Source: Candidatus Curtissbacteria bacterium RIFOXYA1_FULL_41_14 (GTDB lineage Bacteria > Patescibacteriota > Microgenomatia > Curtissbacterales > GWA2-41-24). Taken from it: a DNA stretch of 64,000 nucleotides. The position numbers and the translations under genes were made by a program. Below, one piece after another: positions 3,883 to 38,007 of the stretch. Under the pieces are notes generated by a model, which saw nothing but the letters and a program-made list of their open reading frames with translations, was not told the origin of the DNA and made no database searches. The stretch covers positions 55,975-119,974 of the forward strand of contig MFCA01000029.1 of NCBI GenBank assembly GCA_001775095.1. The letters run 5' to 3'. Numbering within the stretch: the first letter of the stretch is position 1; every line of letters begins with the position of its first letter.

Positions 3883-4730
3883 TTTGAGGAAACAACGACA
3901 TATGTTGCGAAGGAGTCAGTCGTTGCAGAAATGGTCTTGGAAGCACTGTCGTAATTTGAATCAAGCTTTGCCCATTTGGAATCAGTATGATTGTAGCTAT
4001 AAAGTTGGGGGTTTTCGACATCTTGGGTAAGTTTGATGCTTAAAGGGGCACTTTTTGAAAAGACGGGCGCCACCGAAAAAGTACCATAAACAGGTAAAAC
4101 TACGCCTTTAATATCAAATTGGCCATTTGCCGGAACACCGACTGTGTCTGAAATAATCACAAAATAATTTTTGCCGAGAGTTGGAGAGGTCATTTGAAAA
4201 TTACCGGACTGATCTTTAAGCGTTGCTGAGCTTGCGACAATTTGCTCAAAACCCCAACCGGTTTCAGACTGATATTCTGTCTCTCCTTTGAACATATGTA
4301 TTGTCAGTTTGCCATCGGTTATCCCGGTATCCGGACTTCGAACACCTTTTGAAGCTGTACCCAGTAGAATCGATTTCTTATACTTTGGATCTTTGGTATT
4401 TACATCAATACCCGTTGCACCCCGCTGGATCTTTTCACCGGCGATATTAGGGTTGTCTGCCAAGTAAGTTAGCTCATACTCGATCTGGTCAAAATCAGTC
4501 ATATTCTCAATAGAGAGTAAAATTTCTGCGCCGTCAGAGGTTGGTGTCAAAGTCACATAGGGACGCTTTGCAACATCAATTTCATTTAGCTGTCTAACTT
4601 CCCCTGAAACCTCCTCGGGCTTAATTTGTCCAGGCCCTTTTTGAAAGATAAATAAGAAGTAAACAGCGACTAAAATACCTATAAAACCGATAGCAGCAAT
4701 GATGTAAGTGTTGCGTTTAGCCTGATCCAT
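3879..4730 (-). CDS. hypothetical membrane-anchored protein (one N-terminal TM, extracytoplasmic domain)
   Basis: N-terminal hydrophobic helix IIAAIGFIGILVAVYFLFIF followed by a 250-aa hydrophilic domain. 4-bp overlap with glyQS stop suggests co-transcription. Confidence 0.45.
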   Translation of the reverse strand: MDQAKRNTYIIAAIGFIGILVAVYFLFIFQKGPGQIKPEEVSGEVRQLNEIDVAKRPYVTLTPTSDGAEILLSIENMTDFDQIEYELTYLADNPNIAGEKIQRGATGIDVNTKDPKYKKSILLGTASKGVRSPDTGITDGKLTIHMFKGETEYQSETGWGFEQIVASSATLKDQSGNFQMTSPTLGKNYFVIISDTVGVPANGQFDIKGVVLPVYGTFSVAPVFSKSAPLSIKLTQDVENPQLYSYNHTDSKWAKLDSNYDSASKTISATTDSFATYVVVSSK

Positions 4731-4878
4731 CTCAATTTAAATTTCGAAATCCTAAATTCTAAATCCGAAACAAATCCAAATATTCAAAATTCTAAATTCA
4801 AAATACCTAATGTTCAAGAACTTGAATTTAGATATTGTTTAGAATTTCGTGCTTAGTATTTTGGACTTGCAAACAAAA
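4731..4878. repeat. AT-rich intergenic inverted-repeat element, family A copy 1
   Basis: cctaaattctaaatccgaaacaaatccaaat ... gaatttagatattgtttagaatttcg. The arms are mutually complementary. Related copies at 8069-8250, 14534-14701 and 17331-17422. Confidence 0.55.
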
Positions 4879-5502
4879 CTATAAAAACCGTGAGGTTTTG
4901 AGTTTTGTTTGAGTAAGGTTCTCAATTATGCTATCAAGAAATTGCAAAAGTTTCAAATATGACCTGTCTGTGAGTTTGATCTTTTCTTTAATCTTGCCAA
5001 AATCTGCATTTTCCAGGGTTTCAAAAAGATTTTTCGCATTTGAATTTTTGATGTTTTTCGCGGAAAAAAAACCAAGTGTTGATAAAAGTTTGATTTTAAA
5101 TGTAAGTGAGAGTAATCTAAAATCTTCGCCATCGGTAATTCTTTTAAGAAAGCCGACAAGTAGAATAAAAACAGAAAGATTTTTCTGTTTTTCCGCTGTT
5201 AAATTATCAACAAGCTCCAAAAGATGATAGATTTTATTGGCCTTTTGTTCGCTGAAATCGACTATTCCAAAAGAACGCTTTAGTTCAACTTCTGTCAATA
5301 AATCAAGATTCCTGCCCCGAGCAACAAAAATCCGACACCAATTGCCAAGTTCGAGATGACCAGCTTTTCTGGATCTTGGACGACGGACACCTTTGGCAAG
5401 TGCAACAATCTTACCATGATCGCGACTACAAATAGTTAAGATTCTATCCGCTTCTGCGAAATTACGACGCGCTAGAATCACGCCTTCGGTTTTAAAATAC
5501 AT
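4879..5502 (-). CDS. recO: DNA repair protein RecO
   Basis: N-terminal OB-fold signature MYFKTEGVILARRNFAEADRILTICSRDHGKIVALAKGVRR. Length 207 aa. Confidence 0.7.
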   Translation of the reverse strand: MYFKTEGVILARRNFAEADRILTICSRDHGKIVALAKGVRRPRSRKAGHLELGNWCRIFVARGRNLDLLTEVELKRSFGIVDFSEQKANKIYHLLELVDNLTAEKQKNLSVFILLVGFLKRITDGEDFRLLSLTFKIKLLSTLGFFSAKNIKNSNAKNLFETLENADFGKIKEKIKLTDRSYLKLLQFLDSIIENLTQTKLKTSRFL

Positions 5503-5568
5503 AACTTACTACCCCATCGATTCAGACTCGTTTGGGGAGGGTAGATAATACATGCAACAATTTGAATA

Positions 5569-7380
5569 TTAAAGCCTGAAAATGAGTTCCTTGTCGGTAT
5601 CGAGAGGGAAAGCTTTTTGTTTTTTACCAAAAGCCTCAATTTCGTAAGTATGGCCTTTTATACCACCTTGCTTTTGAATAAGAAGTTTATACTGATTGTC
5701 AACTTTTAGAGGGACTGTATATTCAATTTCGAATTTCAGCGAGCCCTCTGGCCTCAGCTCAAAAAACCCTTCAAAAACCGTTTTTGTAAGATCCTCGGTC
5801 TCGGTGAATTCCAATCCATCTGTTTTCGTAATCTTGGATCCCTTAGGAACATAAACTCTTATCCAATCTCTGTAAATCCCGGCCAGACACAAACCACCTT
5901 GACGTTCAAGTGAACAATTGTCCATTTTACGCGGGTACTTATATTCAATTGTTAGCTTTTTCTCTAAATTATTATCTTTACCTTTTTTAACAGTTTGTTT
6001 AACCTTTTCCTGAACGTAGAGATTCGATTTGGCACCGGCAAAATTGGTTTCGTTAATCAGGAAGTAATCACCATCATATTGATTGAGACGCCCGGCAAAA
6101 TTAATTTTCTCGGCGGCTTCTTGAAGATTTGCTCGTTTAAAATATAAAAGCAGATGTTTTTCACGAAGAGCTGTTATCGTCGTTCCCAAAAGATTCGGCC
6201 ACGAGGATTTGGGGGCATTAAATGCTTTATCCATCATTTGCTGCATTAAAACACCAATAATATCTTTGCGCGCGCCTTTCTCATAGGCCACTGGTTCGTC
6301 AGCAAATTTTTCCAGTTCATAAATAATCTGCGGACATGCACAAGCTTCAACTTCATCAGTTGTGAATTTGGCACCGTAGGCATCAATTGGTCCAAGTACT
6401 TTCATCATCGCCAAAACAAATTCGGTATCCAGTGCAACGATCCCGTCAATTTCTTTTTTAGCTTGGGTAGCATTGTATAGTTCCTCGAATTGTTGCATCG
6501 AGGCGTAATAGTCGGGAGAGAGGTTAGAATCCCGCAAATTTAAAGTACTAACATTCGGAAGATATTTAACAATTGGTTCGGGTGCAGGAATTTTCTTAAG
6601 AAGCGTATTATCCAACTCATAAATATCCTGTGAGCCCTCTGAGGCGATGAGGCCGTTGTTGACTCTAAAAATTGCATAGGCAGTAATAAATCCTCCGGTA
6701 GGCCGAAGTTCTTTGTCGTTCTGAAATAGGACCAGGTATTTTTTCTCGCTTGTAGCACCCATAATTTCGGGTAAAACTAAAAGCAAAGGTTTAGTATCGA
6801 CGATAAACGACTCCAGCTGATCAATAGTATTTCTGGCAGTTCTGATTTTAGTACCAGGTTTACCGGGTAAAATATCCGGATAACGCCAAGGTTGAATCTG
6901 ATCTATCCTGTTTCTGGCTTGACCTAGGCTTTTGCCTACTTCATCTATCTGAGGGGTAACTTTTGATAAAGTTTCAATAGCCTTAGCCAGTCTCTCCTGA
7001 GCAGTACCACCTAAAAATGTGCCTTCACCTTCCAAACCCAACACATCCGCATATGGTGTAATAGCCTCAGCCAGAGTACTTGCTCCTTCGAGTCCATAGA
7101 TTGCCCCATCAACACCTCTTTGGATATCGGCAACATACCAACCAAAAAGCGGGATAATCCTTAATGGGGAAAATACGAAGATAAATTTTTTTGTTGTTTT
7201 AAACTCTTTAGTAGCATCACGCAAATAGGCCTTTGTTGCATTCAAATCCTGTAATTTAAAAGCACCGACTGCTTTCTGAGTCGTCGCGATAGCCGTTCGA
7301 GCTGACAGAATTGTTAAAATCCCAAACAGACCAAAAACTGCAATAAAAACTATTAAAATAAGAATTATCCGCCTCTTCAT
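5569..7380 (-). CDS. DUF4012-like membrane-anchored protein of polysaccharide loci
   Basis: N-terminal TM, then LVLFQNDKELRPTGGFITAYA, which resembles the DUF4012 core motif. 603 aa. Assignment from memory of the family signature. Confidence 0.45.
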   Translation of the reverse strand: MKRRIILILIVFIAVFGLFGILTILSARTAIATTQKAVGAFKLQDLNATKAYLRDATKEFKTTKKFIFVFSPLRIIPLFGWYVADIQRGVDGAIYGLEGASTLAEAITPYADVLGLEGEGTFLGGTAQERLAKAIETLSKVTPQIDEVGKSLGQARNRIDQIQPWRYPDILPGKPGTKIRTARNTIDQLESFIVDTKPLLLVLPEIMGATSEKKYLVLFQNDKELRPTGGFITAYAIFRVNNGLIASEGSQDIYELDNTLLKKIPAPEPIVKYLPNVSTLNLRDSNLSPDYYASMQQFEELYNATQAKKEIDGIVALDTEFVLAMMKVLGPIDAYGAKFTTDEVEACACPQIIYELEKFADEPVAYEKGARKDIIGVLMQQMMDKAFNAPKSSWPNLLGTTITALREKHLLLYFKRANLQEAAEKINFAGRLNQYDGDYFLINETNFAGAKSNLYVQEKVKQTVKKGKDNNLEKKLTIEYKYPRKMDNCSLERQGGLCLAGIYRDWIRVYVPKGSKITKTDGLEFTETEDLTKTVFEGFFELRPEGSLKFEIEYTVPLKVDNQYKLLIQKQGGIKGHTYEIEAFGKKQKAFPLDTDKELIFRL

Positions 7381-7417
7381 AAATTTAAAATTGAAGATTT
7401 AAAATTGAAGATTTTCA

Positions 7418-8068
7418 TTATATTGCACCCTTTGTACTTATCATGGCAATTGGAGTCTTAATTACAATCCCAAGGTCATAGAGGATAGATTTTCTTTTAA
7501 TATAATCTGCATCCATCTCTACTCTCTTGTCGAAATTGATAGACGACCTACCTGAAACCTGCCAGGGCCCAGAAGCACCTGGTCTGGCTGTAAGAATTAT
7601 TTTAACGCATTTACGAGTTGTAGGGTAGACTTTTTGTTGATGAATAAGCTCATCTTGTTGATAAGCCCGGGGTCCAACAAGTGACATATCGCCAATTAAA
7701 ACATTTACTAACTGCGGTAATTCGTCAAGGGAAAATTTTCTCAAGATTTTACCAACTGATGTAATTCTGGGATCACGCTTCAATTTAAAACTGTTTTCTT
7801 GATACTGGCGCATTAGTTTTGGGTGGCTTTGCAGATATTTTTCTGCATGGACCCACGTCCCTTTGATTTTGTACATATGCATACTTCTAAACTTAAGCAT
7901 TTTAAATTGACTGCCGTCTTTACCAACGCGAAGCGGGTTATAAAATAGAGGACCAGGTGAGGTTGATTTAACCAGTAGTGCCACAAATATTATTATTGGA
8001 GAAAAAATAATAAGGCTTACAAGACTACCTATAATATCAATAGTACGTTTAGTGAAGTAGTAAAACAT
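7418..8068 (-). CDS. small monotopic phosphoglycosyl transferase (bacterial sugar transferase, PglC/WbaP C-terminal type), initiating enzyme
   Basis: Signature DELPQLVNVLIGDMSLVGPRA plus N-terminal re-entrant hydrophobic segment. 216 aa. Confidence 0.85.
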   Translation of the reverse strand: MFYYFTKRTIDIIGSLVSLIIFSPIIIFVALLVKSTSPGPLFYNPLRVGKDGSQFKMLKFRSMHMYKIKGTWVHAEKYLQSHPKLMRQYQENSFKLKRDPRITSVGKILRKFSLDELPQLVNVLIGDMSLVGPRAYQQDELIHQQKVYPTTRKCVKIILTARPGASGPWQVSGRSSINFDKRVEMDADYIKRKSILYDLGIVIKTPIAMISTKGAI

Positions 8069-8250
8069 ATCCTGAAAAATTCTAATTTCTAAATCCTAAA
8101 TCCTAAACAAATCTAAATGACCAAAATATAAAATTTAAAACAATTTAAAAAAAACAAATTTACTTTTTTGTTTTTTGAACATTTGAATTTTGATATTGTT
8201 TAGAGTTTAGAATTTAGCGTTTAGAATTTGATTAGCTATTAGGTCAATTT
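8069..8250. repeat. AT-rich intergenic inverted-repeat element, family A copy 2
   Basis: tctaaatcctaaatcctaaacaaatctaaatgaccaaaata...ttgaacatttgaattttgatattgtttagagtttagaatttag. Nearly identical to 14534-14701. Lies between a gene 3' end and the next gene start on the minus strand. Confidence 0.6.
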
Positions 8251-9351
8251 CTACAAATATTCTTCTTTCTCGGCGTCTTTGAGTTTTTCAATTATCTTCT
8301 TGACATCATGAGTTCTTCCCTTTGAGCAAACTAAGAGAGCATCCTCCGTATCGACAATGATTAGCCCTTCCAGTCCGATGGCTGCAATAACTTTCTGATT
8401 TTTGTTTGAGTAGACAAGACAGTCTTTAAGATCCAAATCAATTACCTCTCCCTGCAGTATATTGTCTTGAGGATGAGAAGCCATTTCGTCTTTTAGTTCA
8501 TTCCATGTTCCGACATCCCTCCAACCCAGATCTGCAGAGACGACTACTTGGTCTTGACCTGTCAGATGAGAATTGACCGCGAAGTCTATAGAAGTTTTAG
8601 GAATTTTTTCGTATTCTCTTTCCAAAACCGATTCCTGCTGGTCTCCCCCCCATGCTTTTTGAATTTTGGATAGAGGTACAAAGCCTTTTGGAAAGAACTT
8701 CTCAATTTGGGAAAGCATTTTTCCCGCTGGCCAAAGTGCATAGCCTACATGCCAGAGATATTCCCAGGATTCCACGAATTTTTTGGCTTGAGCAAAATCG
8801 GGTTTTTCAATTTGGGCAACAAATTCGAAAACTGCTATACCGTTAACTTTTTTTAGCATTTTGCCAACTTGTAAATAGCCCAAGGCGGTACTTGCAAAGG
8901 TCGGCCTTACACCGATTTCGACGAATTTACCAGTTTCTGCGACTGTTTGATTTGCCAGTAAAATTGCTTTGATAAATTCCGGACCGTTGCGTACTACATG
9001 ATCACACCAAATAGCCAAGACATTTGGATTATCAAACTTTTTATCCAAAACTGCGGCCGCTAAGCCGACAGCTGCACCAGTATCTCGCATTTGTGGTTCG
9101 ATAACGATGTTCTCAAGTGGAATCTGAGGAGCAAGTTTAACAATCCAACCAACACAATCACGGGTGGTTATGGGAAATATGTCACGGAAAGGGAACTCTT
9201 GTTTTAAAAGATTTACCATAATCTCAAAAGTGGACAAATTGTTGATAAGCGGCTGGAATTGTTTGGGAAGTGCCCTTCTGCTCATCGGCCACATACGAGT
9301 GCCGGATCCACCGCAAAAAAGAGCGATTTTTAAGTTTCTATGATTCTGCAT
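8251..9351 (-). CDS. mannose-1-phosphate guanylyltransferase-like sugar nucleotidyltransferase
   Basis: LFCGGSGTRMWPMSR nucleotidyltransferase P-loop. Length matches ManC without the isomerase domain. Confidence 0.7.
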   Translation of the reverse strand: MQNHRNLKIALFCGGSGTRMWPMSRRALPKQFQPLINNLSTFEIMVNLLKQEFPFRDIFPITTRDCVGWIVKLAPQIPLENIVIEPQMRDTGAAVGLAAAVLDKKFDNPNVLAIWCDHVVRNGPEFIKAILLANQTVAETGKFVEIGVRPTFASTALGYLQVGKMLKKVNGIAVFEFVAQIEKPDFAQAKKFVESWEYLWHVGYALWPAGKMLSQIEKFFPKGFVPLSKIQKAWGGDQQESVLEREYEKIPKTSIDFAVNSHLTGQDQVVVSADLGWRDVGTWNELKDEMASHPQDNILQGEVIDLDLKDCLVYSNKNQKVIAAIGLEGLIIVDTEDALLVCSKGRTHDVKKIIEKLKDAEKEEYL

Positions 9352-9430
9352 GTTATTAAAGTATCAAAGGTATCAAAGGTTATAGAACATTATGCGTATG
9401 ATACTTGTGGTACTTCTGATACTTGTGGTA
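9352..9430. repeat. tandem direct repeats (gtatcaaag x2; 18-mer gatacttgtggtacttct x2.5)
   Basis: Seen directly. The 18-mer array encodes the SQVSEVPQVSEVPQVS tail of the GT4 at 9390-10535 on the minus strand. Confidence 0.65.
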
Positions 9431-10535
9431 CTTCTGATACTTGTGATACATATCTCTCGAGTTCTTCTATAAAGTGCTTTTTCGAGAATCTCGTCGCGTT
9501 CTTCCTGCAAACTTGTATCTTCCATTTTACCCTACTTAATCTTCCAATTGCATCTTGGAGTGCTTGCGCCGATTGATTATCAAATAAAATTCCAGTTCTG
9601 CCATCTTCGACAGTCTCACTGACACCGCTTTGCCTATAAGCAATTACCGGAATACCACAGGCTTGTGCCTCTACTGCAGCAATACCAAAATCTTCTTCCT
9701 GGGTCACTATCAGGGCCTGGCAATTTTGATAAAGTTCGCGAAGCTGCTCTCTTGTTACTCTGCCAAGAAACTCAATATCTCCTGTCCTGTCATCTCGAAC
9801 CAATCTTTTAAGTCTCGATCTATCCGGTCCCTCCCCGACTATTTTTAGACTTTTTCCCATATTAGATATTGCCTTAATTGCTATATCAATCTTTTTCCAT
9901 TTCACGAGTCTGGTGACCACTAGGAAATAATTTTGACTTTTAAGTTCCCAGTTGTGAACTTTGGCAACCTGGAAAAAATTTAGGTCAACGAACGGATAAA
10001 TTACTTCGGACTCTCTTTCGTAAAATTTTTTAATTTTTTTGCTAATATTTGCCGAATTCGCGACAAACAAATCAGGTCGACAGGAGGATACTTTATCCCA
10101 TCTTTTGAGCCATATTAAGATTGGCTTAAAAATGAGTCTTAACATAATTGGTAAATAATCAGCCTGAGCTTTGCGCCCGTATAAAAATCTTGGAATACTG
10201 TTCATATAGCAAATATGCATCGTTCTGGGTTGAGTAATAATTGATTTGGCGAAGCGGGTAGTTGAGGAGATTACAAGATCGAATTCATTGAAATTAAAAC
10301 TCTCAAATGCCAATGGGTAAAGTGGTAAAAGAGCTTTATACAATTTGGCAGCAAAAGGAATTTTCTGCATCCAGGAGGGCCGGATTCTATCCCGGTTTAT
10401 TGTGGAAGGTAATTTCTTCCAATCAACGAAGGAGGTATAGATTGGAGCTTTGGGCCAAATGGAAGCGATGGTAGCAAACAGACTCTCCGCTCCTCCGGCT
10501 TGAACGAAGTCATCGTGTACAAGGGCTACTTTCAT
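9390..10535 (-). CDS. glycosyltransferase family 4 with repetitive C-terminal tail
   Basis: GT4 architecture with EDFGIAAVEAQACGIPVIA donor-binding motif. C-terminus ends in a repeat-encoded VSEVPQ tract. Confidence 0.8.
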   Translation of the reverse strand: MKVALVHDDFVQAGGAESLFATIASIWPKAPIYTSFVDWKKLPSTINRDRIRPSWMQKIPFAAKLYKALLPLYPLAFESFNFNEFDLVISSTTRFAKSIITQPRTMHICYMNSIPRFLYGRKAQADYLPIMLRLIFKPILIWLKRWDKVSSCRPDLFVANSANISKKIKKFYERESEVIYPFVDLNFFQVAKVHNWELKSQNYFLVVTRLVKWKKIDIAIKAISNMGKSLKIVGEGPDRSRLKRLVRDDRTGDIEFLGRVTREQLRELYQNCQALIVTQEEDFGIAAVEAQACGIPVIAYRQSGVSETVEDGRTGILFDNQSAQALQDAIGRLSRVKWKIQVCRKNATRFSKKHFIEELERYVSQVSEVPQVSEVPQVSYA

Positions 10536-10575
10536 GGGGTAATTATATCAACTGTTTTAGTGATACACTAAATAT

Positions 10576-10770
10576 ATGGTCCGGGGGGTTGTAAGTTTGT
10601 TATTGCTTTTGATTACAATTATCATATTAGCTTTAATTTTTATTTTGGCAAATCCTTTCTCCGCAAGTAAAAACGAGGCAACTAGCCCACAAAAAATTCA
10701 AGAAACTCAAGATGTAATTGATAATTATCAGCAAAAATCTCTAGAAAGACAAACGATAGAAGTCGAGTAG
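10576..10770 (+). CDS. possible small membrane protein (64 aa)
   Basis: Only plus-strand ORF in a 248-bp gap. Hydrophobic helix LLLLLITIIILALIFILA then a polar tail. Preceded by perfect hairpin tttagtg-atac-cactaaa. No homology evidence. Confidence 0.25.
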   Translation: MVRGVVSLLLLLITIIILALIFILANPFSASKNEATSPQKIQETQDVIDNYQQKSLERQTIEVE

Positions 10771-10783
10771 AAGACAAAGATTT

Positions 10784-11569
10784 TCATCGAATTCCAAAGA
10801 ACTTTTCTTTTAGTTCAGCAAGAGACAAGTTTCCAATAACTCTTTGTTCTCCAAATAATTCTATAGCCTTCAGTAATAATTCCCATTGCTCGTGAGGTTC
10901 CAGTTGTACTGCAAGGGTTCTTTGTTGCAAAATGGCGGTTTTTAAATCTCCATTATAACCAGTTATCGCACTTCCACAGGTATATCTATGTCCATCTGAG
11001 CTCGCAATTGCTGCGCCTATTGATCTATTTTGCCGATAATGTGAATAAAAAAATTGTGCTGCAATATTTGTGTCCTGAATCCTATCGTTCCTAAGAGATT
11101 GGTATTGAACTCCTGCATTACATACCTCGAAACCGTCGAAATAAACCCCTTCAGCCCTGCTCTTCATAATGTCTATAATTCTTTCATCTGTCAACGAACT
11201 GACTCTAAAGAATGGGTGGGGAGCAATAGTCAATCCTCCTTGTTCGTGGATAGCACAAAGGGTTTGTTCGAGTGTTATATTTCTTTCGATCGGCCCTTTA
11301 AGAAACAACCCGACTACATGTCCGTCTTTTGTTCTTACTTCTGTTCCGACGATAACTTGAATTTCTAATCCTTCTCTTTGTACATGTTCATGTGCTGCTA
11401 GCGCAGGTTTAGTAGTATGATGATCAGCTATTGCAATAGCTGAAAGTCCTATGCTTTGTGCAAATTCAACAGCTTGTTCAGGAGTCATCTTCCCGTCAGA
11501 ACCTGTTGTGTGGACATGAAGATCTGCAAAATGAGTTGTATCAATCGGTCTTCCGAGAACTTCTTTCAT
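10784..11569 (-). CDS. PHP-domain metal-dependent phosphoesterase
   Basis: DLHVHTTGSDG...IADHH...PHPF His-rich motifs of the PHP family. Confidence 0.7.
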   Translation of the reverse strand: MKEVLGRPIDTTHFADLHVHTTGSDGKMTPEQAVEFAQSIGLSAIAIADHHTTKPALAAHEHVQREGLEIQVIVGTEVRTKDGHVVGLFLKGPIERNITLEQTLCAIHEQGGLTIAPHPFFRVSSLTDERIIDIMKSRAEGVYFDGFEVCNAGVQYQSLRNDRIQDTNIAAQFFYSHYRQNRSIGAAIASSDGHRYTCGSAITGYNGDLKTAILQQRTLAVQLEPHEQWELLLKAIELFGEQRVIGNLSLAELKEKFFGIR

Positions 11570-11572
11570 GCG

Positions 11573-12361
11573 TTAAGAATGTGCCGCAACAAAAGCGATG
11601 GCAAGTGAATCATTTGGAACAACTAAAATTGACCAATCAGTCAGAGAAAGAGCTTTTGCTCTTTCCAATGCCTTTCCAACAAGATTAACGGAAAAACTAT
11701 TTCCTGATTCTGGTCTAATTTCAACATCTTTTCGACCTACTCCCTGCTTGAATCCAGTTTCAAGAACTTTTACAACTGCTTCTTTACTGGCCCATCTGAT
11801 CGCTAATTCTTGAGGATCCTCCTGGCTATCATCAACTTCTCTCTCAGAAAAAACAATAGCATAGAGTCGGTTTCTACTTTTTTCCATTAATTCTCTAAAT
11901 CGGTCATTTGATGTAACATCCACACCGATTTGCAGCGATCCTTGGAAATTTTCAGGTATCGCGGCTGCAAATCCAATTGCTATTCCCTCATCATGGCTGA
12001 TACTTAGTCTATACTGCGAAAACCCTTTATTCCGAATTATATCTTTAGATTCTTCTCCTATTTGCACAACAGGTTGTCCTGTTTCTGACGGATGGATGTT
12101 AATGTCGGTCCAGTTTAATCCAGTACCCACTGCCCTCATTAAAGCAACTTTAGCGGCAAACCTACCGGCGAGACGATTGAGTCTGTTTTTACAATATAAA
12201 AGCTCTTCCTCAGTAAGATACCGTGCAAGAGAATGATCGGGAAGATTAAGATACCCCACGCCATAAACCCACAAATTTACTCCCTCCCCCAATCTGAATT
12301 CATGGGATAAGCGTGTGTTTAAATACGCAGAAATTGGAGAGAATCTTGGTACTTCTCGCAT
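11573..12361 (-). CDS. 4'-phosphopantetheinyl transferase-like protein, tandem AcpS-like halves (first half degenerate)
   Basis: Half 1: RFAAKVALMRAVGTGL and LSISHDEGIAIGFAAA, resembling AcpS RFAVKEAAAKAFGTGI / VTLADERHYACATVI but lacking GxDxxE and the KEA Glu. Half 2: IGVDV...WASKEAVVKVLETG intact. Confidence 0.5.
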   Translation of the reverse strand: MREVPRFSPISAYLNTRLSHEFRLGEGVNLWVYGVGYLNLPDHSLARYLTEEELLYCKNRLNRLAGRFAAKVALMRAVGTGLNWTDINIHPSETGQPVVQIGEESKDIIRNKGFSQYRLSISHDEGIAIGFAAAIPENFQGSLQIGVDVTSNDRFRELMEKSRNRLYAIVFSEREVDDSQEDPQELAIRWASKEAVVKVLETGFKQGVGRKDVEIRPESGNSFSVNLVGKALERAKALSLTDWSILVVPNDSLAIAFVAAHS

Positions 12362-12394
12362 TGACGTATTTTACTATCTCTTTCAAGGAAGAGC

Positions 12395-13594
12395 CTAGAG
12401 GCTGTATTGTACATAAACCTTAAGTGTCTCTCTGGCCATCTTAAGCCAAGAGTATTTTTGCACTTGTTCCAAGCCCTTTACTACGAGGTCGGACCTCGTA
12501 GTTGTATCTGTGAGGACTTTTTGGATTTTTCTGGATATATCTTTTGGATCCTCTGGATCGAAATACAATGCGGCATCCCCGTAGATTTCTTTAAGTGTCG
12601 GAATGTTTGAACAAACTGCCGGAAGGCCCGCGGCCATGGAATTAAGACCGGGAATTCCAAACCCCTCCGAAAGTGATGGGAATACATAAGCTTGGGCAGA
12701 TCTTAAGACTTCTGATAATTCTTTTGGCGGAATATAGCCAGTCAGGACAACTCCCTCCTCTAATCCTAGATTCTTTATCCTTTCTTTTAGGCGTTGCCAG
12801 AAAATATCCCGAGGACAGACAAGGATTAAGTGCAGCTTGCGCTCACCCCAGGGGTGTTTTTCTATTCTGTGAACCGTTGACTGTGAACCGTGAACTAAAA
12901 TCTTGAAAGCTTGCAGTAACCGTTCAAGATTTTTGTGTGGATAAGCATTCCCTATATAAATGATAAAAGGCTGATTAATATTGTATTTCTCCAAAAACTT
13001 TGAACTTTGAACTTTGAACTTTGAACTTGTTCGGAAGTATTCCTCTTCTGCCGCTTCGTATGTTACGACGATTTTCGCAGGATCAATTCGAAAAGTCCTA
13101 ACAATCTCGTCCTTAACAAAATTCGAGGGGGTGAGGATTTTTTGAGAATCTTTGACAGCATGATTAATAACATGTCGATAAGCAAACCTTTTAATTTTAA
13201 AAATGTAAAGATTCCGAGTCGTTGCGGATTCTTGTCTAAATCGATGATGGATCAGGTCATGAATTGTTACTATGAATTTACCTCTGTAAAAAACAGGCAC
13301 GTTAAAATGAGTAAAGTGTAAAAGATCTAAATTCTGGTTTGAAAAAATTTTTGGTAATTTAATTTGCTCTTTGAGAGAATACCAGGGGATATCTGCTAAA
13401 ACCTTTTTGAAATTTTTGGATTTTAACCTTAGCCAATCCCAGTTAGACCGGCGCAGAAAAATAACATACTGATTATTGTCATCTAAAATTGCGAGATTTT
13501 CGATAAGTTTTTCAGTATATTTACCAAGACCTGTACCTTCCGGACCGACAAACCTCGCATCAATACCAATTCTCATATATCCCCCTCTTGTCAT
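12395..13594 (-). CDS. glycosyltransferase family 4 (probable true start MRIGIDAR at 13576), carries heptamer tract and gtgaac-repeat insert
   Basis: MRIGIDARF N-terminus and PSLSEGFGIPGLNSMAAG motif. Extra loop GSQSTVHRIEKHPWGERKLH relative to paralog 23002-24141. Confidence 0.8.
   Translation of the reverse strand: MTRGGYMRIGIDARFVGPEGTGLGKYTEKLIENLAILDDNNQYVIFLRRSNWDWLRLKSKNFKKVLADIPWYSLKEQIKLPKIFSNQNLDLLHFTHFNVPVFYRGKFIVTIHDLIHHRFRQESATTRNLYIFKIKRFAYRHVINHAVKDSQKILTPSNFVKDEIVRTFRIDPAKIVVTYEAAEEEYFRTSSKFKVQSSKFLEKYNINQPFIIYIGNAYPHKNLERLLQAFKILVHGSQSTVHRIEKHPWGERKLHLILVCPRDIFWQRLKERIKNLGLEEGVVLTGYIPPKELSEVLRSAQAYVFPSLSEGFGIPGLNSMAAGLPAVCSNIPTLKEIYGDAALYFDPEDPKDISRKIQKVLTDTTTRSDLVVKGLEQVQKYSWLKMARETLKVYVQYSL
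12998..13029. repeat. heptanucleotide tract (CTTTGAA)x4 plus partial unit inside GT4 coding sequence
   Basis: Seen: ctttgaactttgaactttgaactttgaacttg, encoding SSKFKVQSSKF on the minus strand. Unit length is not a multiple of 3. Confidence 0.75.
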
Positions 13595-13595
13595 C

Positions 13596-13650
13596 CTGAG
13601 GAAGCAAAGCGACCAAAGGATTTGATTTTATGGACGCAATAGCGGTCATG
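13596..13650. repeat. family B element copy (ttgtcatcctgagg ... aaggatttg) in intergenic spacer
   Basis: Shares GTCATCCTGAG core with 705-795 and 19859-19893. Confidence 0.45.
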
Positions 13651-14533
13651 CTGACATAATTCTGATTCTCAATAAAATCTTCAAAGAAATTAATACCAGC
13701 CAATTAATAAAAAATGGGTATTTTAAAAGATAATGTTTTTTATAAAAAATCTCCATTGCTCTGACTGATTCTGTAAGGGCCCGCTTTTTTGAATCTATAG
13801 ATGCTTTTGTCAGGTGCTGAGATGTTTGTTTCATTCCGGAGGCGGCCCCTTTGTAGTGGATAATTTTGGTTCTTGGAGTGTACATAATCTTGTATCCGGC
13901 GTCTTTAAATCGCCAACACCAATCAAGATCTTCGCCATAAAAGAAAAAATCCTCATCAAATAGGCCGACTTTTTTAACTATAGATTGTCGAACCATCATA
14001 AAAGCACCAACGCAGGAATCTATCTCGTGTTCAGTTGCAGGTGATAAATACCCAAAATAGTATTGATTGAATAACTTAGAATGGGGAAATAATTTCGCCA
14101 GTTTTGAAAAATGACAAAAAGCTCGCCATGGAGTCGGAAAATGCCGGCGACAATCGCGATCTATCTGGCCGTTAGGTAGTTCAACTCTACAGGTAGAGAC
14201 CGCAATTTTCGGGTCTTTTTCCATAAACTTAATCATTTCTGAAATAGTGTCAGGGGCCAGTTTTGTGTCCGGATTTAATATCAGCACATATTTTCCCTTT
14301 GCAAGCTTTAATGCCTGGTTATTGGCTTTGGAAAAACCTAGATTTTTTTTATTTGCTATTAGCTTAATCTGAGGATAATCTTTCTTGATCATCGCGGCCG
14401 TATTATCAGAAGAATTATTGTCGACGACGAATATCTCTGTCTGAAATTCTTTGGAAGAACCGATAACTGAATTTAGGCAAGATTTGAGAAGTTCTTTTGT
14501 ATTGAAAGAGACGATGATGATAGATAAATCCAT
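13646..14533 (-). CDS. glycosyltransferase family 2
   Basis: MDLSIIIVSFNT...VVDNNSSDNT...WCWRFKDAGYKIMYTP typical of GT2 (rhamnosyl/galactosyl-transferase type). Confidence 0.8.
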   Translation of the reverse strand: MDLSIIIVSFNTKELLKSCLNSVIGSSKEFQTEIFVVDNNSSDNTAAMIKKDYPQIKLIANKKNLGFSKANNQALKLAKGKYVLILNPDTKLAPDTISEMIKFMEKDPKIAVSTCRVELPNGQIDRDCRRHFPTPWRAFCHFSKLAKLFPHSKLFNQYYFGYLSPATEHEIDSCVGAFMMVRQSIVKKVGLFDEDFFFYGEDLDWCWRFKDAGYKIMYTPRTKIIHYKGAASGMKQTSQHLTKASIDSKKRALTESVRAMEIFYKKHYLLKYPFFINWLVLISLKILLRIRIMSA

Positions 14534-14701
14534 AATAAATTTCTAATTTCTAAATCCTAAATCCTAAATCCTAAACAAATTCAAATGACCAAAATACATA
14601 ATTCAAAACAAATCTTAATTTTTTGGTTTATTTGAACATTTGAATTTTGATATTGTTTAGAGTTTAGATATTAGAGTTTAGGATTTTTATTAGTTATTAG
14701 G
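14534..14701. repeat. AT-rich intergenic inverted-repeat element, family A copy 3
   Basis: Near-identical to 8069-8250 apart from the central ~25 bp, including the attaggtcaattt end that overlaps the upstream gene stop. Confidence 0.6.
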
Positions 14702-15892
14702 TCAATTTTTTCCTCCTACTTCCTGATATACTCGGTCGAGCTCTGATGATATCTTCTTCCAGTCATACTGACTTTTTACCAATTGATAGGCTCTGCTTGC
14801 TAATTCCTGCCCAAGTTTAGGGTTTTTTAAAACTTCTAAGGTCTTTGCTGCTAAGTCACTGGCAGTTTCGGCAACAAAAGCTTCTTTACCGTTTCTTATA
14901 TGGATTCCCTCAACCGCTAGCTTGGAACCTATAATTGGGGTATTAGTAGCCATTGCTTCTAGAATTTTATATTTCGTGCCACGCCCGTTGCGTATGGGCG
15001 CCAAAAGAACGTCAGCTTTTGCATAGGCAAGTCTGACATCTTCAACTTCCCCATCCACCTGGACGTCGGGGCCTGTAAATTTAAGAATATCTAAAGGGGG
15101 ATTCCTACCTACTATCCAAAGTTTGGCGGTCTTAATCTGACTTTTTATCTTTGGCCAAATCTCCTCTACCAAAAATTTGGTAGCATCACGATTTGGCAAC
15201 CATTTGAACTGTCCAACAAAAAGGACAGTTGGACTTTTCGGTTTTAGTTTCTCGGTTTTTGCAAAATAATCTATATCAACCCCGTTGGCAATTACATCTA
15301 CCTTCAGGGGACTGTGATTTTGGATAAAAAGACGGTCATCATCAGACATTGCGGCTAGTCTTTTGGCCTTCCTCCAATAATATCTTTCCCACCATTTAAT
15401 CTTGAAAACATCAGCGAGAAGAAAAGGTTTAATAAAAAACATCCATAACGGTAAGCCCTTTACAAAACTTTGGTATACGAGATATTCAATGACTTGTTCA
15501 ACTAAAAAAATGGGGATTTTGGTTTGGGGAATATTAGGCATTACGTAGAAAGTCTCAGCATGGATAAGATCGTAGTTTTCACTTTCTAATTCACGTTTGA
15601 TTTTACTTCTGACAGAAATATCAAAATAGATGCTTACTAAAAAAGGGAATGGAGTTATTCCGGCTAGTATTATATTTACGGGAGACCAAGCTTTTCTTCT
15701 TTTAAAAATAATTATCTTGCGACAAAAAGGCATGAGTTCATTCAAATATTTTCTCTCGGCATCTTCGCGAATGAATGAGGCTAAAGTGATTTGATGCTTT
15801 GGGGCCAGATTTTTAAGTAAATTATATGTACGAATTTGTCCGCCGGAAACTAAGGGATAAGGGAGATATGGTGTGATCATTAAAATTTTCAT
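14702..15892 (-). CDS. glycosyltransferase family 4
   Basis: MKILMITPYLPYPLVSGGQ N-terminus and C-terminal GT4 donor-binding region (KYKILEAMATNTPIIGS). Confidence 0.8.
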   Translation of the reverse strand: MKILMITPYLPYPLVSGGQIRTYNLLKNLAPKHQITLASFIREDAERKYLNELMPFCRKIIIFKRRKAWSPVNIILAGITPFPFLVSIYFDISVRSKIKRELESENYDLIHAETFYVMPNIPQTKIPIFLVEQVIEYLVYQSFVKGLPLWMFFIKPFLLADVFKIKWWERYYWRKAKRLAAMSDDDRLFIQNHSPLKVDVIANGVDIDYFAKTEKLKPKSPTVLFVGQFKWLPNRDATKFLVEEIWPKIKSQIKTAKLWIVGRNPPLDILKFTGPDVQVDGEVEDVRLAYAKADVLLAPIRNGRGTKYKILEAMATNTPIIGSKLAVEGIHIRNGKEAFVAETASDLAAKTLEVLKNPKLGQELASRAYQLVKSQYDWKKISSELDRVYQEVGGKN

Positions 15893-15893
15893 A

Positions 15894-17330
15894 CTACCTC
15901 CCTATACATTCTTTAAACATCTCGACAATGACATAATCTTGCGTTTGGTCAATAACCTTACAATGCTTGATAAGATTCTGAATACCGGCATCTGCAACAT
16001 CGACTGATACCAGATATTTAGTACCCTCATCTATAAATTTTTCAAGTGGCCTGTCGACGATGGGGTAGCCATGTCGATTTGTCTGATAAAGAAAAGCGGC
16101 ATCGCCGTTATAAGGTGCGATAACCGTGGCATCTTTTGGAAGAAGTTGATCAACAGCCTTGCCTGCTTTGACTATTTGCGGCTTGTTTATCCAATAAAAA
16201 CCGCGTACTTCAAAAGTGCCAAAAGCAAAGGTCAGAACAATTAAAATAATTGCGATGGGATAACTAATGATTCTGTTAAAAGACTGAGCCGGGAGGGCTA
16301 AAAGGTTTTTAGTGCCAACCGCCATAAAAATCGCAGCGATTGGAATAAACGGCACTTGATAGTAGTCGTGGCGAATATTACCGGATGCAAAAACCACGAA
16401 GTATATAGCTACAGAAGCCAGCCATGTAAGGTAAAATGATTTTTCCTGCAGCTGGGGTTTTTTTAAAATCCCTAAAACAAAGAGAGAGAAGCCAGGTACA
16501 GTCAAGATTAATTTTCCCATCCGCTCGGCGATCAACCAGCGAAAAAATGCGCCTTTAAAACGAATATTTCCCTCATTTAGAAGAAATCGCCAATTGGGAA
16601 TACCTTGGGGAAACTGAGTCATCCAAATACGCCATAAAACAAAAGGTAAAAGGGATAAAAGTGCAAATAGCCACAATTTGTAATTTCTGAAAAGCGAGAT
16701 TCCAAATTTATCATAGGCCAAATACAAGGCAGGCAAGAAGAAAAAAATGGCAATTGGCCAAGTGAGAATTGCTAAATTAGCAAAGACTATAGATAAAATG
16801 AACCAAATTAACTTTTGATTCTCGAGCCATTTTAAAAAAGTTAAATAAAGACCTAAAATCCCTAAAACCATCAGTGGTCCCGGCAAAACTGCTGAAGAAT
16901 AAAAAATGTTATATGGCAAGAAAGCGAAGAAAAATGCCGACAAGAGTGCAGTCTGAGTACCGGAAAAGTGTTTGACTAAAAAATATAGAAGAAGTGTCGA
17001 GATGAGAGAAATCACGACAGTAGTTAATCGTGCATAAGTCTCATTTACGCCAGTTATTGACCAAACGCCGGCCACAAGCGTGTTATAAGTAGGAAATTCA
17101 ACGAAACGATATCTTTGGGGATTATCAAGGCCGTTGGCTTGAGACGACATATCGTCATATCGAGGAATAAATGGATTAAAACCCTCCTTAATAAAATTTC
17201 GGGCAACCGCAGCAGTGTCTGCTTGTCTCCATGAATGCCAGTCTGCTATTGGCCGGTTAATTTTATAGAGGCGAATTACAAAGGCAAGAATCAGGATTAT
17301 TGAGAGGACAATAATTTCGACTTTTCTCAT
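15894..17330 (-). CDS. polytopic membrane glycosyltransferase, GT-C fold (ArnT/PMT_2-like)
   Basis: About 12 predicted TM helices. First-loop motif WHSWRQADTAAVARNF aligns with the DE-x-x-(Y/H)A loop of the paralogs at 24871, 34081 and 38077. Confidence 0.45.
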   Translation of the reverse strand: MRKVEIIVLSIILILAFVIRLYKINRPIADWHSWRQADTAAVARNFIKEGFNPFIPRYDDMSSQANGLDNPQRYRFVEFPTYNTLVAGVWSITGVNETYARLTTVVISLISTLLLYFLVKHFSGTQTALLSAFFFAFLPYNIFYSSAVLPGPLMVLGILGLYLTFLKWLENQKLIWFILSIVFANLAILTWPIAIFFFLPALYLAYDKFGISLFRNYKLWLFALLSLLPFVLWRIWMTQFPQGIPNWRFLLNEGNIRFKGAFFRWLIAERMGKLILTVPGFSLFVLGILKKPQLQEKSFYLTWLASVAIYFVVFASGNIRHDYYQVPFIPIAAIFMAVGTKNLLALPAQSFNRIISYPIAIILIVLTFAFGTFEVRGFYWINKPQIVKAGKAVDQLLPKDATVIAPYNGDAAFLYQTNRHGYPIVDRPLEKFIDEGTKYLVSVDVADAGIQNLIKHCKVIDQTQDYVIVEMFKECIGR

Positions 17331-17422
17331 TTGTTAAACTCCAAACTCTAAACCCTAAATTCCAAATAATATCAAAATTTCAAATTTGAAGGTTTAGAGT
17401 TTTTGAATTTAGGCATCTGAAT
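17331..17422. repeat. family A copy 4 (short form)
   Basis: aaactctaaaccctaaattccaaa ... ttgaaggtttagagtttttgaatttagg inverted repeat. Lacks the central segment of copies 2 and 3. Confidence 0.45.
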
Positions 17423-19087
17423 TTATTTGGAATTTGTGATTTGTGATTTGAGATTTACTTTTGTTGTGGTTGCTAATTTAACTGTAGCCAAAAGTATGGC
17501 CACCATGATCCAAAAAGTGTAAGCTACCTTGGAGGCTTCAAAAACATCGATATAAAGAGAGTTAACAAGAAGACCTAAGGTGGCAGCGATCAAAGCGGCG
17601 ACGAGAGTCGAGGCAAAAGGATCGTTAATTTTTTTAAAGTTAACAAGAGAATACCAGATAATAAAGGCGATTATTCCAAAAAAGGCCAAAAATCCTGAAA
17701 GACCGGTCTCCCCAAGGGCTCTTAAAAAATCATTGTCCGTTGACTCAGCCTCTGTAAAATCTTCGATATTTCTTTTGGTTAAAGTTGAATAACCGGAGCC
17801 AAAAATCGGATTGCGGGTAAATCCTTTAATTGCTTGGGGCCAAGTGTAATCGAGACGGATTCCGGTTGACAGGTCGTATTGAACCGCAGCTTGTGAGTAA
17901 ACTCGGGGTTTTGCAGCCAGTGTGGCCGGCAAACTTTCCCCTTCTCCATATTCAGGGACGTCCTCATAAACGTCGGCAGGTACTGCACCAGTAACCGGCG
18001 ATCCAGTGGTTGGTTTTTGAGTAGTGGGAGGTGTATCCGATTTTGAGCCGACATCTTTTCCGATATCAAGATAAGCCGCTTGGGCTCCACCTGGAGGTTC
18101 CTTTTTAAGAGGTTTCAGAGCAAATGAGGTTTTGAACGCGTCTAATTTCAGGACATGGGCAAAACGGTCTGAAAGATCGCCAAAAGAAATCATGACAACA
18201 AGAGAAAAAACAATCACAATTGACCAGCGAGAAACACTCCAAAGCCAACCTCTCTTAAGGATCAATAAGCTAAAAACAATTGTTATCGAAACTAGATAGG
18301 CCAAAAAAGATGTTCGTGAAACGGTTAGAATCAAAAGCCAAAAGCCGGCCAGGCTAACAATCAAAAAAAGTAGCTTATGAGTGATTTTCTTAAGAATGGT
18401 AATTAGGGGAATGAAAATCGTCAGAACAATCATTAAATAGGCTGCTAAATCATAGTGGCCACCGAAAGTTGACAGTACCCTAGCATGCTCAGTCAGATAG
18501 AGTTTTACACCTTTGGAAAACTCTCGATTCATCGTCGAAAATGCCGGCCAATAAAGGTACTTTTGGCCGAATCCGTAGATCGAAACTCCCAAAAGGACAA
18601 CGGCAGCAAGAAAGATATATTTTTTTATCTGAGCTAACGATTTTATGGATGAGAAAAATATAAAAAAGACCGAAAAATATTCCACTCTTCTTATGAAATG
18701 CAAATAGAGTTTTTCCATATGAAGTGCCTGAACAGGAACAGTTTTAGTCCAAAAAAGGGCGGAAAGTGTAGAGAGAAAACCAACAATAACATAGACACCA
18801 ATGGGAATAAACAAGGGGTTACCTCTAAGAGTTACTTTTTTTCGGATAAGCCAGATTACCCAAATACCGAATGCTAGTGCTACTAAAAGATCATCCGGCC
18901 TAAGTCTTACTAAATAGCCGGGGATAAGGTCCGCAATCGGAATTTTGGGGTAAAGTGGAATAAAAATAAGAAGAGCAAGAGATAAATATTCAAGGATGTG
19001 ATCATCGAGCCATGTTAAACCAGGCTTAAACCGCCTTAAAAGCTTCGACATACGATTTTGCAAGCTCCTTTCTTCCCAAGAGACCAA
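17423..19087 (-). CDS. O-antigen ligase / polymerase-like (Wzy_C domain) membrane protein with Pro/Thr-rich extracytoplasmic linker
   Basis: Multi-TM protein with GHYDLAAYLMIV...TVSRTSFLAYLVSITIVFSLLIL resembling the Wzy_C/WaaL core. PTTQKPTTGSPVTGAVP low-complexity loop. Confidence 0.5.
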   Translation of the reverse strand: MVSWEERSLQNRMSKLLRRFKPGLTWLDDHILEYLSLALLIFIPLYPKIPIADLIPGYLVRLRPDDLLVALAFGIWVIWLIRKKVTLRGNPLFIPIGVYVIVGFLSTLSALFWTKTVPVQALHMEKLYLHFIRRVEYFSVFFIFFSSIKSLAQIKKYIFLAAVVLLGVSIYGFGQKYLYWPAFSTMNREFSKGVKLYLTEHARVLSTFGGHYDLAAYLMIVLTIFIPLITILKKITHKLLFLIVSLAGFWLLILTVSRTSFLAYLVSITIVFSLLILKRGWLWSVSRWSIVIVFSLVVMISFGDLSDRFAHVLKLDAFKTSFALKPLKKEPPGGAQAAYLDIGKDVGSKSDTPPTTQKPTTGSPVTGAVPADVYEDVPEYGEGESLPATLAAKPRVYSQAAVQYDLSTGIRLDYTWPQAIKGFTRNPIFGSGYSTLTKRNIEDFTEAESTDNDFLRALGETGLSGFLAFFGIIAFIIWYSLVNFKKINDPFASTLVAALIAATLGLLVNSLYIDVFEASKVAYTFWIMVAILLATVKLATTTKVNLKSQITNSK

Positions 19088-21453: not shown

Positions 21454-21514
21454 ACCTACTAGACTATAATATCAGAATTTACTTTGCATATACTATATTC
21501 GAGCGGATCGCCTG

Positions 21515-21676
21515 ATAAACTTCCGAGGGCTAAAAGCCCTCGGTCCTGCCTGCCAGCAGGCAGGTATTGCCCTAAAAAGTTTACATGAGCGAGCAGAACA
21601 CTCGGAAGTATGTATTCGCTCCGCATTCATCCGTGGACTAAGAGTTCATGGTATTGAAGCGAGCGAATATAAAATC
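21515..21676 (-). promoter_or_regulatory. conserved hairpin-containing leader element upstream of acetyltransferase gene (copy 1)
   Basis: aaacttccgagggctaaaagccctcgg...attgccctaaaaagtttacatgagcgagcaga...gtatgtattc...gcgagcgaatata. A second copy at 38008-38110 upstream of the paralogous acetyltransferase has a compensatory change in the hairpin stem. Confidence 0.5.
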
Positions 21677-21690
21677 TGTCTTGATCCAAA

Positions 21691-22950: not shown

Positions 22951-22951
22951 A

Positions 22952-22986: not shown

Positions 22987-23001
22987 GTCACTACACACTA
23001 T

Positions 23002-37992: not shown

Positions 37993-38007
37993 TTATCGTT
38001 TCTAATT

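Follow-up and report, generated by a model that had tools for sequence, protein, structure and literature searches.

What is the AT-rich inverted repeat that recurs at four stop/start junctions of a single minus-strand glycan operon in Candidatus Curtissbacteria (Microgenomates, Candidate Phyla Radiation (CPR)) from the Rifle aquifer? A repeat search of the stretch of 64 kb analysed here, hereafter the window, showed that the four stretches form one family of related elements, which we call family A, and that the two halves of each are mutually inverted. We consider it likely that family A represents a small four-helix-bundle gene cassette in gene-less, non-autonomous form, and that this cassette inserts at operon junctions and is of the same type as the intervening sequences (IVSs) of ribosomal RNA (rRNA) genes.

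An earlier note, made from the sequence, had described four AT-rich inverted-repeat copies between minus-strand genes, and open reading frame (ORF) calls and Pfam matches confirm all of them at their places (Table 1). Copies 1-3 lie where it placed them, and copy 4 extends over ~17333-17460 instead of 17331-17422. The elements measure 128-182 nt, have a G+C content of 20-26% and possess arms composed of repeated 7-nt units, which are AAATCCT in one arm and GTTTAGA in the other (Tandem Repeats Finder). Low-complexity matching by chance, a concern of the earlier note, is excluded, since the arm 17-mer (at most 3 mismatches) has 9 matches in the window against 0.57 expected and the core 22-mer TTGAATTTWGATATTGTTTAGA has 3 against 0.01. 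A profile built solely from 59 elements of other genomes and then run on the window matched exactly the four copies and nothing elsewhere in the 64 kb. It fits copy 4 better on the minus strand than on the plus strand (E=4e-7 for the latter), so that this copy is inverted relative to copies 1-3; both of its cores are kept, and its central segment, thought to be absent, is instead shortened to less than that of the other copies. The near-identity claimed for copies 2 and 3 is real (93% over 162 aligned nt, with one heptamer unit and a 14-nt indel as the differences). They have the tail AAATTGACCTAATARCTAAT (gene-sense strand) in common, which supplies the GT4 stop codon in copy 3 and begins directly after the ManC stop in copy 2. 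Four assemblies of the window locus (L001-L004) are identical in gene order and spacing.

The origin of the element becomes apparent in other genomes. In locus L109 (Daviesbacteria), the loop between family-A arms is a 119-aa ORF that starts at the ATG of the conserved left core and whose stop codon is followed by the conserved right core, and a second full cassette with an ORF of this class (119/120 aa) occurs in L010 (Parcubacteria), where a gene-less copy lies 1.5 kb downstream, on the opposite side of the same gene. An iterative hidden Markov model search of 1.77 Mb of examined loci detected four-helix-bundle genes only in L109 and L010. These ORFs match TIGR02436 “four helix bundle protein” (E=7e-17), PF05635 “23S rRNA-intervening sequence protein” (E=3e-10) and the structure PDB 2RLD (E=2e-12), and a full cassette is ~0.5 kb long. 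A protein search retrieved 6565 homologues; among four picked blind to their flanks, three (66-76% identical) lie between family-A arms and the fourth is directly followed by a gene-less family-A element. Full-length cassettes with an S23p/PF05635 ORF are present in L109, L010, L198, L201 and L202, and there are intermediates that contain only an N-terminal fragment of the gene (L058) or only C-terminal fragments (L008 and L079). The gene-less elements themselves preserve its beginning: the consensus of 59 of them reads ATG ACC AAA ATT CAA AAT TCA AAA, that is, MTKIQNSK, the N-terminus of homologues P0015 and P0028, and the remnants in the window consist of the start codon and at most 9 codons (MTKIHNSKQ in copy 3, MTKI-stop in copy 2). 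Taken together, the genes in the loops, the N-terminal remnant, the intermediates and the flanks of the blindly chosen homologues show that the gene-less hairpin is an internal-deletion derivative of the cassette.

How the copies came to lie at operon junctions is answered by relatives of the locus, 80 of which were recovered by a metagenome scan with the GT4 protein. The closest, L118, is collinear with window positions 3671-19952 at 72-82% amino acid identity and, in the comparison that the earlier note had proposed, lacks the copies at all four junctions; the alignment is interrupted at each copy, with further interruptions at other variable spots. Where the window has copy 1, L118 has TAGATG, the stop codon of one gene abutting the start codon of the next. 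Copy 2 stands in place of an 8-nt spacer (the junction in L118 is only TAG+CCTTCCAT+ATG), copy 3 in place of a 5-nt spacer, and copy 4 parts Wzy and PMT_2, which overlap in relatives including L118. In most of ~60 relatives the gap between GT4 and GT2 is 0-17 nt, and a profile search of the related loci found no family-A element at this junction, nor any elsewhere in them except for a weak one between ManC and Bac_transf of L181. The four copies are thus lineage-specific insertions with empty sites in relatives. They now put 92-182 nt between genes that formerly abutted, and copies 3 and 4 donate stop codons. Copy 4 reaches 33 nt into the Wzy reading frame, adding an 11-residue tail to the Wzy-like protein, whose ORF ends in ...KVNLKSQITNSK-stop.

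Family A is by no means restricted to this locus. Further copies, which the earlier note had suggested looking for, turned up in a scan for the 22-mer core that covered one genome per species: more than 113 loci outside the window are among the matches listed. Three of these matches, in Bacillaceae, occur in an unrelated context; the remaining listed ones are built alike: CTAAAC closes one heptamer arm and is followed by AAATTCAAATGACCAAAAT, a variable loop, TTTTGAACATTTGAATTTWGATATT and GTTTAGA, after which comes the inverted heptamer arm. The hosts of the listed matches include many Patescibacteria as well as Nitrospirae, Schekmanbacteria, Omnitrophota (a single-cell genome), Pirellulales (Planctomycetes), Dehalococcoidia, Chloroflexia, Deltaproteobacteria, Gammaproteobacteria, Binatia, WOR-3, KSB1 and Armatimonadetes. 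Mis-binning cannot explain this spread, because several matches are located on closed chromosomes or contigs of megabase size, among them contigs of this size from Chloroflexia and Binatia and a WOR-3 chromosome. Phages were considered as vectors and rejected: 2.9 million viral contigs contain no exact match to the 22-mer, and a looser 17-mer gave 99 loci, only 4 of them real. Copies within one genome are more alike (mean identity 0.79) than copies from different genomes (0.65), and within-genome pairs reach 91-97% identity, which indicates that the element has recently multiplied in several phyla, as with copies 2 and 3 of the window.

Table 1. Positions and properties of the four family-A copies and of other repeats and genes of the window mentioned in the text (L118, closest relative; folds refer to the transcribed strand)
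Feature	Position	Element sense	Profile match	Profile E-value	Composition and placement	Central segment	Neighbouring genes (Pfam or ORF)	Window segment compared with L118	Same junction in L118	Fold (kcal/mol; z)
Copy 1, gene-less hairpin element	4731..4878	+, antisense to host genes	4742-4866	9e-23	right core 22-mer 4822-4843; exactly between RecO stop TAG and ATG of next gene	~65 nt	RecO 4879-5502 / unannotated 283-aa ORF 3879-4730	4882-4668, 214 nt	61 nt	-34.5; -4.2
Copy 2	8069..8250	+	8079-8227	6e-23	left heptamer arm 8077-8108; left core with vestigial start codon and 4-codon remnant ATG ACC AAA ATA TAA, 8117-8131; right core 22-mer 8183-8204; right heptamer arm 8198-8229; tail 8230-8250, abutting ManC stop 8251-8253	~90 nt	ManC-like nucleotidyltransferase 8251-9351 / Bac_transf 7418-8068	8277-8070, 207 nt	33 nt	-36.2; -3.5
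Copy 3	14534..14708	+	14547-14684	7e-26	vestigial ATG 14585-14587 (MTKIHNSKQ...); right core 22-mer 14640-14661; tail is source of GT4 TGA stop, 14702-14704	~79 nt	GT4 14702-15892 / GT2 13646-14533	14712-14533, 179 nt	13 nt	-33.5; -3.8
Copy 4, diverged and shorter	17333..17460	minus strand, same as host genes	17451-17338	6.5e-12	5' heptamer arm 17423-17460, forming last 11 codons and TAA stop of Wzy-like gene	~45 nt	Wzy_C 17423-19087 / PMT_2 15894-17330	17478-17332, 146 nt	26 nt	-28.7; -3.9
Bare heptamer hairpin, core-less	22950-23013				(TAGTGAT) x5.6, then inverted (TCACTAT) x3.7; extends into 3' end of ORF 23002-24141		two minus-strand genes			
In-frame heptamer arrays	12866-12896 and 12996-13028						within ORF 12395-13594			
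In-frame heptamer arrays	22239-22310						within ORF 21691-22950			
In-frame heptamer arrays	2747-2777						within ORF 2521-3882			
Inverted 9-nt arrays	9361-9449				GTATCAAAG x2, TGATACTTG x5.7		GT1 9390-10535 / ManC 8251-9351			
Small G+C-rich palindromes	700-751, 22239-22290 and ~19850-19890				...GTCATCCTGAGCGAAGTCGAAGGG... type		between genes and inside ORFs			
ACPS and PHP-domain genes	10784-12361						between GT4b and GT1			
Shared intergenic sequence	21515-21549 and 38008-38042				ATAAACTTCCGAGGRCTRAAAGYCCTCGG and ...TTTACATGAGCGAGCAGA...		intergenic regions 21454-21690 and 37993-38076			
Tandem duplication	28244-28557				131- and 161-nt spacings, 94-100% identity		fills intergenic region 28368-28566, overlaps start of ORF 27204-28367			

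The earlier note had called the element MITE-like (miniature inverted-repeat transposable element) and spread through the locus, and much of this description stands, namely insertions with empty sites, multiple copies, recent within-genome copying and a gene-less derivative. A MITE in the classical sense, that is, a deletion derivative that the transposase of its parent insertion sequence moves in trans, with the inverted arms recognised as terminal inverted repeats, would also account for the small size of the element, for its occurrence in both orientations and for arms that match a shared consensus rather than each other, as the binding ends of a protein would. What does not hold is the parentage: the longer versions carry only the four-helix-bundle gene (6/6 contexts), the first 8 codons of that gene are kept in the gene-less form, the 10 scanned proteins adjoining copies contain no transposase domain, and the four junctions display no target-site duplication. 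We therefore regard a classical MITE as improbable.

Even less probable is that the hairpin came first, as a heptamer-repeat palindrome which arises and spreads alone and to which the four-helix-bundle gene was added as a secondary guest that targets hairpins. Bare, core-less heptamer hairpins do exist in this same window (Table 1), and other small G+C-rich hairpins are nested in the family-A arms of L006, L018 and L010, which implies that hairpins can be insertion targets. However, gene-less elements keep the start codon of the gene, 8 of its codons and its 3' flank, truncated-gene intermediates exist, arms and core are jointly missing from the empty sites, and each protein subfamily has its own heptamer unit (see below).

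The small structured RNA proposed in the earlier note survives to the extent that each copy folds as a long hairpin on the transcribed strand, with stems of ~45-55 pairs, minimum free energies of -28.7 to -36.2 kcal/mol and z-scores from -3.5 to -4.2. Arms are ~80% complementary (1393/1743 aligned positions) and draw on a vocabulary common to the elements (AAATCCT, AAATTCT, AAGCACT, AATATCT, AAATCCG). Beyond folding, no sign of a selected RNA was found. Gene-less elements between co-directional genes occur in the two orientations 31:31 (8 others lie between convergent and 7 between divergent genes); wobble pairs exhibit no strand bias (61 G.U versus 88 A.C) and do not vary with host orientation in the way expected of a functional RNA; and, although copies 1 and 4 fold better on the transcribed strand than on its complement, this strand is not the more stable one across 46 foreign elements (mean +1.0 kcal/mol, 20/46, p=0.38). 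Rfam gave no match at the gathering score in the whole window, and an E-value scan around copy 2 yielded only a chance snoRNA match (E=1.8). The terminator or promoter module that the same note had envisaged finds no support: promoter-like consensus sites are not enriched (46 versus 37±6), the few weak matches in or at the edges of copies being ordinary for AT-rich DNA, terminator-like sites between 4000 and 18000 number 10 versus 11.9 expected by shuffle, with 0/10 inside a copy, the stems consist almost wholly of A/T and lack a G+C-rich base, and the flanking genes abut or overlap in relatives. We conclude that the element possesses the hairpin as a property of its own, not as a host-selected regulator. 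A cis-regulatory module of RNA or DNA, be it a terminator, promoter, attenuator or mRNA-stabilising hairpin, that the host has selected to coordinate the glycan operon is hence the least probable alternative, because the placement of the copies at gene junctions of one operon and their stable transcribed-strand hairpins, which would suit it, are outweighed by these null results, by the lack of covariation reported below, by the absence of family-A copies (bar the weak one of L181) from the same junctions of relatives, and by the occurrence of the same sequence in unrelated operons of many phyla. As for the suggestion that the element coordinates expression or mediates recombination, evidence was found neither for nor against it.

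Coming back to a cassette and its gene-less derivative, a plausible course of events can be sketched. Family A inserts in both orientations, and no transposase was found. The cassette would lack a promoter of its own and be transcribed by read-through from the host operon, and in the transcript the arms would pair into a stem of ~50 bp. By analogy with rRNA IVSs, RNase III would cut this stem, so that an insertion between genes could be tolerated. A co-transcribed long hairpin cleavable by RNase III would be the likeliest effect of the element, and we infer that the copies in this locus are near-neutral selfish passengers. We guess that full copies supply the four-helix-bundle protein, which would act in trans on the heptamer arms, perhaps, more speculatively, together with a reverse transcriptase as in the case of Avd (see below).

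Several observations weigh against this interpretation. The window contains no four-helix-bundle gene. Neither a target-site duplication or direct repeat nor a conserved target is visible at the four junctions in the comparison with L118. The arms do not covary: elements score 20.0 with their own arms versus 22.6 with those of other elements, and 4999/5000 permutations reached at least the observed value, which implies that stem formation is not visibly under element-specific selection. The more than 113 loci were ascertained by one exact 22-mer, which overstates the conservation of the core, and cassettes found via the protein vary in this 22-mer. No role in mobility has been demonstrated for the S23p/four-helix-bundle protein family, and 3/12 of the plasmid cassettes described below are oriented against their neighbours. 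In the IVS of Coxiella, moreover, the ORF is decaying and its protein is probably not translated (PMC4990558).

The closest system described so far is the IVS with an S23p ORF, reported from Coxiella burnetii, Leptospira, Brucella and Xanthomonas (PMC4990558). The Coxiella IVS occupies 428 nt in helix 45 of the 23S rRNA, encodes an S23p (four-helix-bundle) ORF, has terminal inverted repeats that form a 28-bp stem and a variable number of tandem heptamers (GACAGAT) before the ORF start, and is excised by RNase III in vitro (PMC4990558). In CPR bacteria, rRNA genes contain insertions with a PF05635-type ORF, in addition to many short ORF-less ones at classical IVS sites (PMC11270868). Family A resembles IVSs in its PF05635/TIGR02436 loop protein, present in the full-length relatives, in the terminal inverted repeats that form a long stem, present in the window copies, and in the variable-number tandem heptamers near the ORF start. 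Also common to both are a sporadic distribution suggestive of horizontal transfer, a decay-prone ORF and expression, presumed for family A, through host read-through. It differs from them in lying between protein-coding genes instead of in rRNA helix 25/45 (universal rRNA motifs were found in none of the examined loci), in the sequence of its arms and in the loss of the ORF from the window copies; in addition, excision by RNase III is proven for IVSs but presumed for family A. In the literature searched, outside of which most subscription journals fall, we found no description of the family-A element, of its spread across phyla or of a general bracketing of four-helix-bundle genes by inverted heptamer arrays, and heptamers beside S23p are mentioned there only in the Coxiella paper (PMC4990558). 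Family A appears to be a cassette of the IVS type located outside rRNA, along with a miniature derivative of it, and the link between four-helix-bundle genes and heptamer repeats is apparently undescribed.

Comparison with other small repeats sharpens this picture. Like MITEs (Correia/NEMIS, ERIC, RUP, Nezha and the QMITEs of Coxiella), family A is short, non-coding, multi-copy, intergenic and co-transcribed, has inverted ends, is polymorphic for presence and absence, arises by internal deletion of a longer coding element and can donate stop codons and C-terminal tails. In contrast with them, its parent has no transposase, it leaves no target-site duplication, its arms are heptamer arrays instead of a fixed terminal repeat, and its sequence is nearly the same across phyla. 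REP/REPIN elements with their RAYT transposases (repetitive extragenic palindromes and the tyrosine transposases associated with them) likewise comprise intergenic hairpin-forming doublets that multiply within genomes (PMC3116915). REPs, however, are short G+C-rich palindromes linked to a genome-specific Y1-transposase gene, vertically inherited and species-specific (PMC3116915), whereas family A is A+T-rich, heptamer-armed, associated with a four-helix-bundle protein and found across phyla. With integron cassettes it has in common a single, presumably promoter-less ORF with an imperfect palindrome, co-directional insertion and, probably, read-through expression. Nevertheless, its arm ends YCTAAAC and GTTTAGA violate the attC cores RYYYAAC and GTTRRRY, its palindrome brackets the ORF on both sides, and its insertions are scattered instead of arrayed; no integrase was found among the 10 scanned proteins adjoining copies.

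Two further comparisons concern the repeats of the arms and the protein of the loop. Xanthomonas and Nostoc are reported to have an excess of heptamer repeats, which in the former often form convergent inverted pairs, and GGGGATT/GGGAATC repeats of the short tandemly repeated repetitive (STRR) type have been described as simple-sequence or G-quadruplex repeats (PMC4692102). A term search of that paper finds no mention of 23S or S23, hence it makes no link with a gene cassette. STRRs are, like the arms of family A, intergenic 7-nt tandem arrays, and the arms of a four-helix-bundle cassette of Planktothrix consist of AATCCCC, which is GGGGATT on the other strand; those of Euhalothece are of the TGGTCAC type. 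As to the protein, Avd is an accessory four-helix-bundle pentamer, a small basic nucleic-acid-handling protein of a mobile genetic system, and no Avd gene is known to have heptamer arrays on its flanks. The loci examined contain neither a reverse transcriptase nor a template/variable repeat pair adjoining family-A cassettes, in which they differ from Avd systems. The resemblance is one of fold and family, PF05635 being homologous to the Avd of diversity-generating retroelements (PMC10053308).

Heptamer bracketing of four-helix-bundle genes extends well beyond family A. Using tblastn with the L109 protein against plasmids, we obtained 24 records (29-39% identity), mostly from Nostoc and other cyanobacteria and otherwise from Chlorohelix, Bernardetia, Chondrinema and Monoglobus, so that the hosts include cyanobacterial, Chloroflexota, Bacteroidota and Bacillota plasmids. 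All of the 12 plasmid genes inspected are flanked on either side by arrays of short repeats, for the most part inverted heptamers. The arm unit differs from case to case, each protein subfamily having its own: AATTCAA / TTTTGAA in Nostoc flagelliforme and Aulosira, CAATTCG / TTGCGAA in Nostoc punctiforme, AATTCGT / TTACGAA in Dolichospermum, AATCCCC and AATCGTA / CGATTTA and GGGATTT in Planktothrix, TGGTCAC in Euhalothece, ATGAAGG / CATAATT in Chlorohelix and AATTAGG / CCTAATT in Monoglobus. A period-7 score of 16 or more (out of 21) on each of the two flanks was reached by 9/17 four-helix-bundle genes versus 0/694 control ORFs. Full cassettes are co-oriented with their neighbours in 15/18 cases (one-sided binomial p ~0.004), versus 31:31 for gene-less elements, as fits a promoter-less gene that depends on read-through. 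On plasmids they separate cas2 from cas1, DrmD from PglX, hsdS from hsdR, a helicase from a methylase (in Chlorohelix) and the two subunits of an RND pump from each other, or they lie upstream of cas1. Cassettes in defence operons are those of L306, L307, L308, L310, L314 and L316, on plasmids of Anabaena, Pseudanabaena, Chlorohelix, Planktothrix, Monoglobus and Dolichospermum, and they may explain the presence of the protein family in catalogues of cas- and defence-associated genes.

It is conceivable, though we advance it tentatively and hold it to be rather doubtful as a whole, that heptamer-bracketed four-helix-bundle genes constitute one large, unrecognised class of promoter-less, operon-invading mobile cassettes across phyla. 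Such a class would include the S23p IVSs of rRNA, the STRR/GGGGATT/GGGAATC repeats, the genes in defence operons and the gene-less hairpins, with an Avd-like pentamer recognising the arms and driving or maintaining the element. To our knowledge, the protein of rRNA IVSs has had no known role since the 1990s. The proposed class would provide a testable model in which a general operon-invading cassette has IVSs as one of its landing sites, inserts cleanly between the genes of an operon and decays to a gene-less hairpin still able to multiply. It would likewise tie the heptamer repeats of cyanobacteria and Xanthomonas, so far simple-sequence or G-quadruplex curiosities, to the IVS protein family. 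Tractable hosts are available, for instance Nostoc punctiforme with its plasmid pNPUN02 (CAATTCG arms). These elements would also explain annotation artefacts in metagenome-assembled genomes, such as unexpected intergenic gaps, altered stop codons and C-terminal tails, as well as “four helix bundle protein” genes inside defence operons.

Other insertions made of heptamers or hairpins occur in and around the locus. At the same junction as copy 2, between ManC and Bac_transf, L124, L179 and L181 contain related but diverged heptamer elements, which could reflect an insertion hot spot or an old shared insertion. These three loci have a divergent ManC allele (52-54%) next to neighbouring genes as similar as in other relatives. 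A recombination junction was considered at this place and rejected: L180 lacks an element although its ManC is of that type, and the neighbouring genes are not displaced. L179 and L181 have the tail AAAATTAACCTAAT in common; the tail AAATTGACCTAAT was likewise rejected as a general end of the element, being restricted to copies 2 and 3 and to L179/L181. Small G+C-rich palindromes of the type found at three places in the window are, in other genomes, nested in family-A arms (L006, L018 and L010:3108-3126).

Heptamer arrays (GTTCACR, CAAAGTT) are also present in frame inside three ORFs of the window (Table 1). In one case they bracket the G+C-rich hairpin CCCTTCGACTTCGCTCAGGGCAGGC, which is read as ...SPFDFAQGRQ..., and in both GT4 genes the in-frame insert is placed after the same motif, ...AFKIL. 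These arrays look like a second family of heptamer-armed insertions, tolerated within proteins. Inverted 9-nt arrays span the junction between GT1 and ManC, where the window is ~85 nt longer than L118, so that a further hairpin insertion, from another family, is probable here. The genes for ACPS (a phosphopantetheinyl transferase) and a PHP-domain protein, located in the variable stretch between GT4b and GT1, are a lineage-specific insertion without counterpart in any related glycan locus. The sequence shared by two intergenic regions, which has no Rfam match, could be a repeated hairpin or a small RNA gene. A tandem duplication fills another intergenic region and overlaps the start of the adjoining ORF (Table 1).

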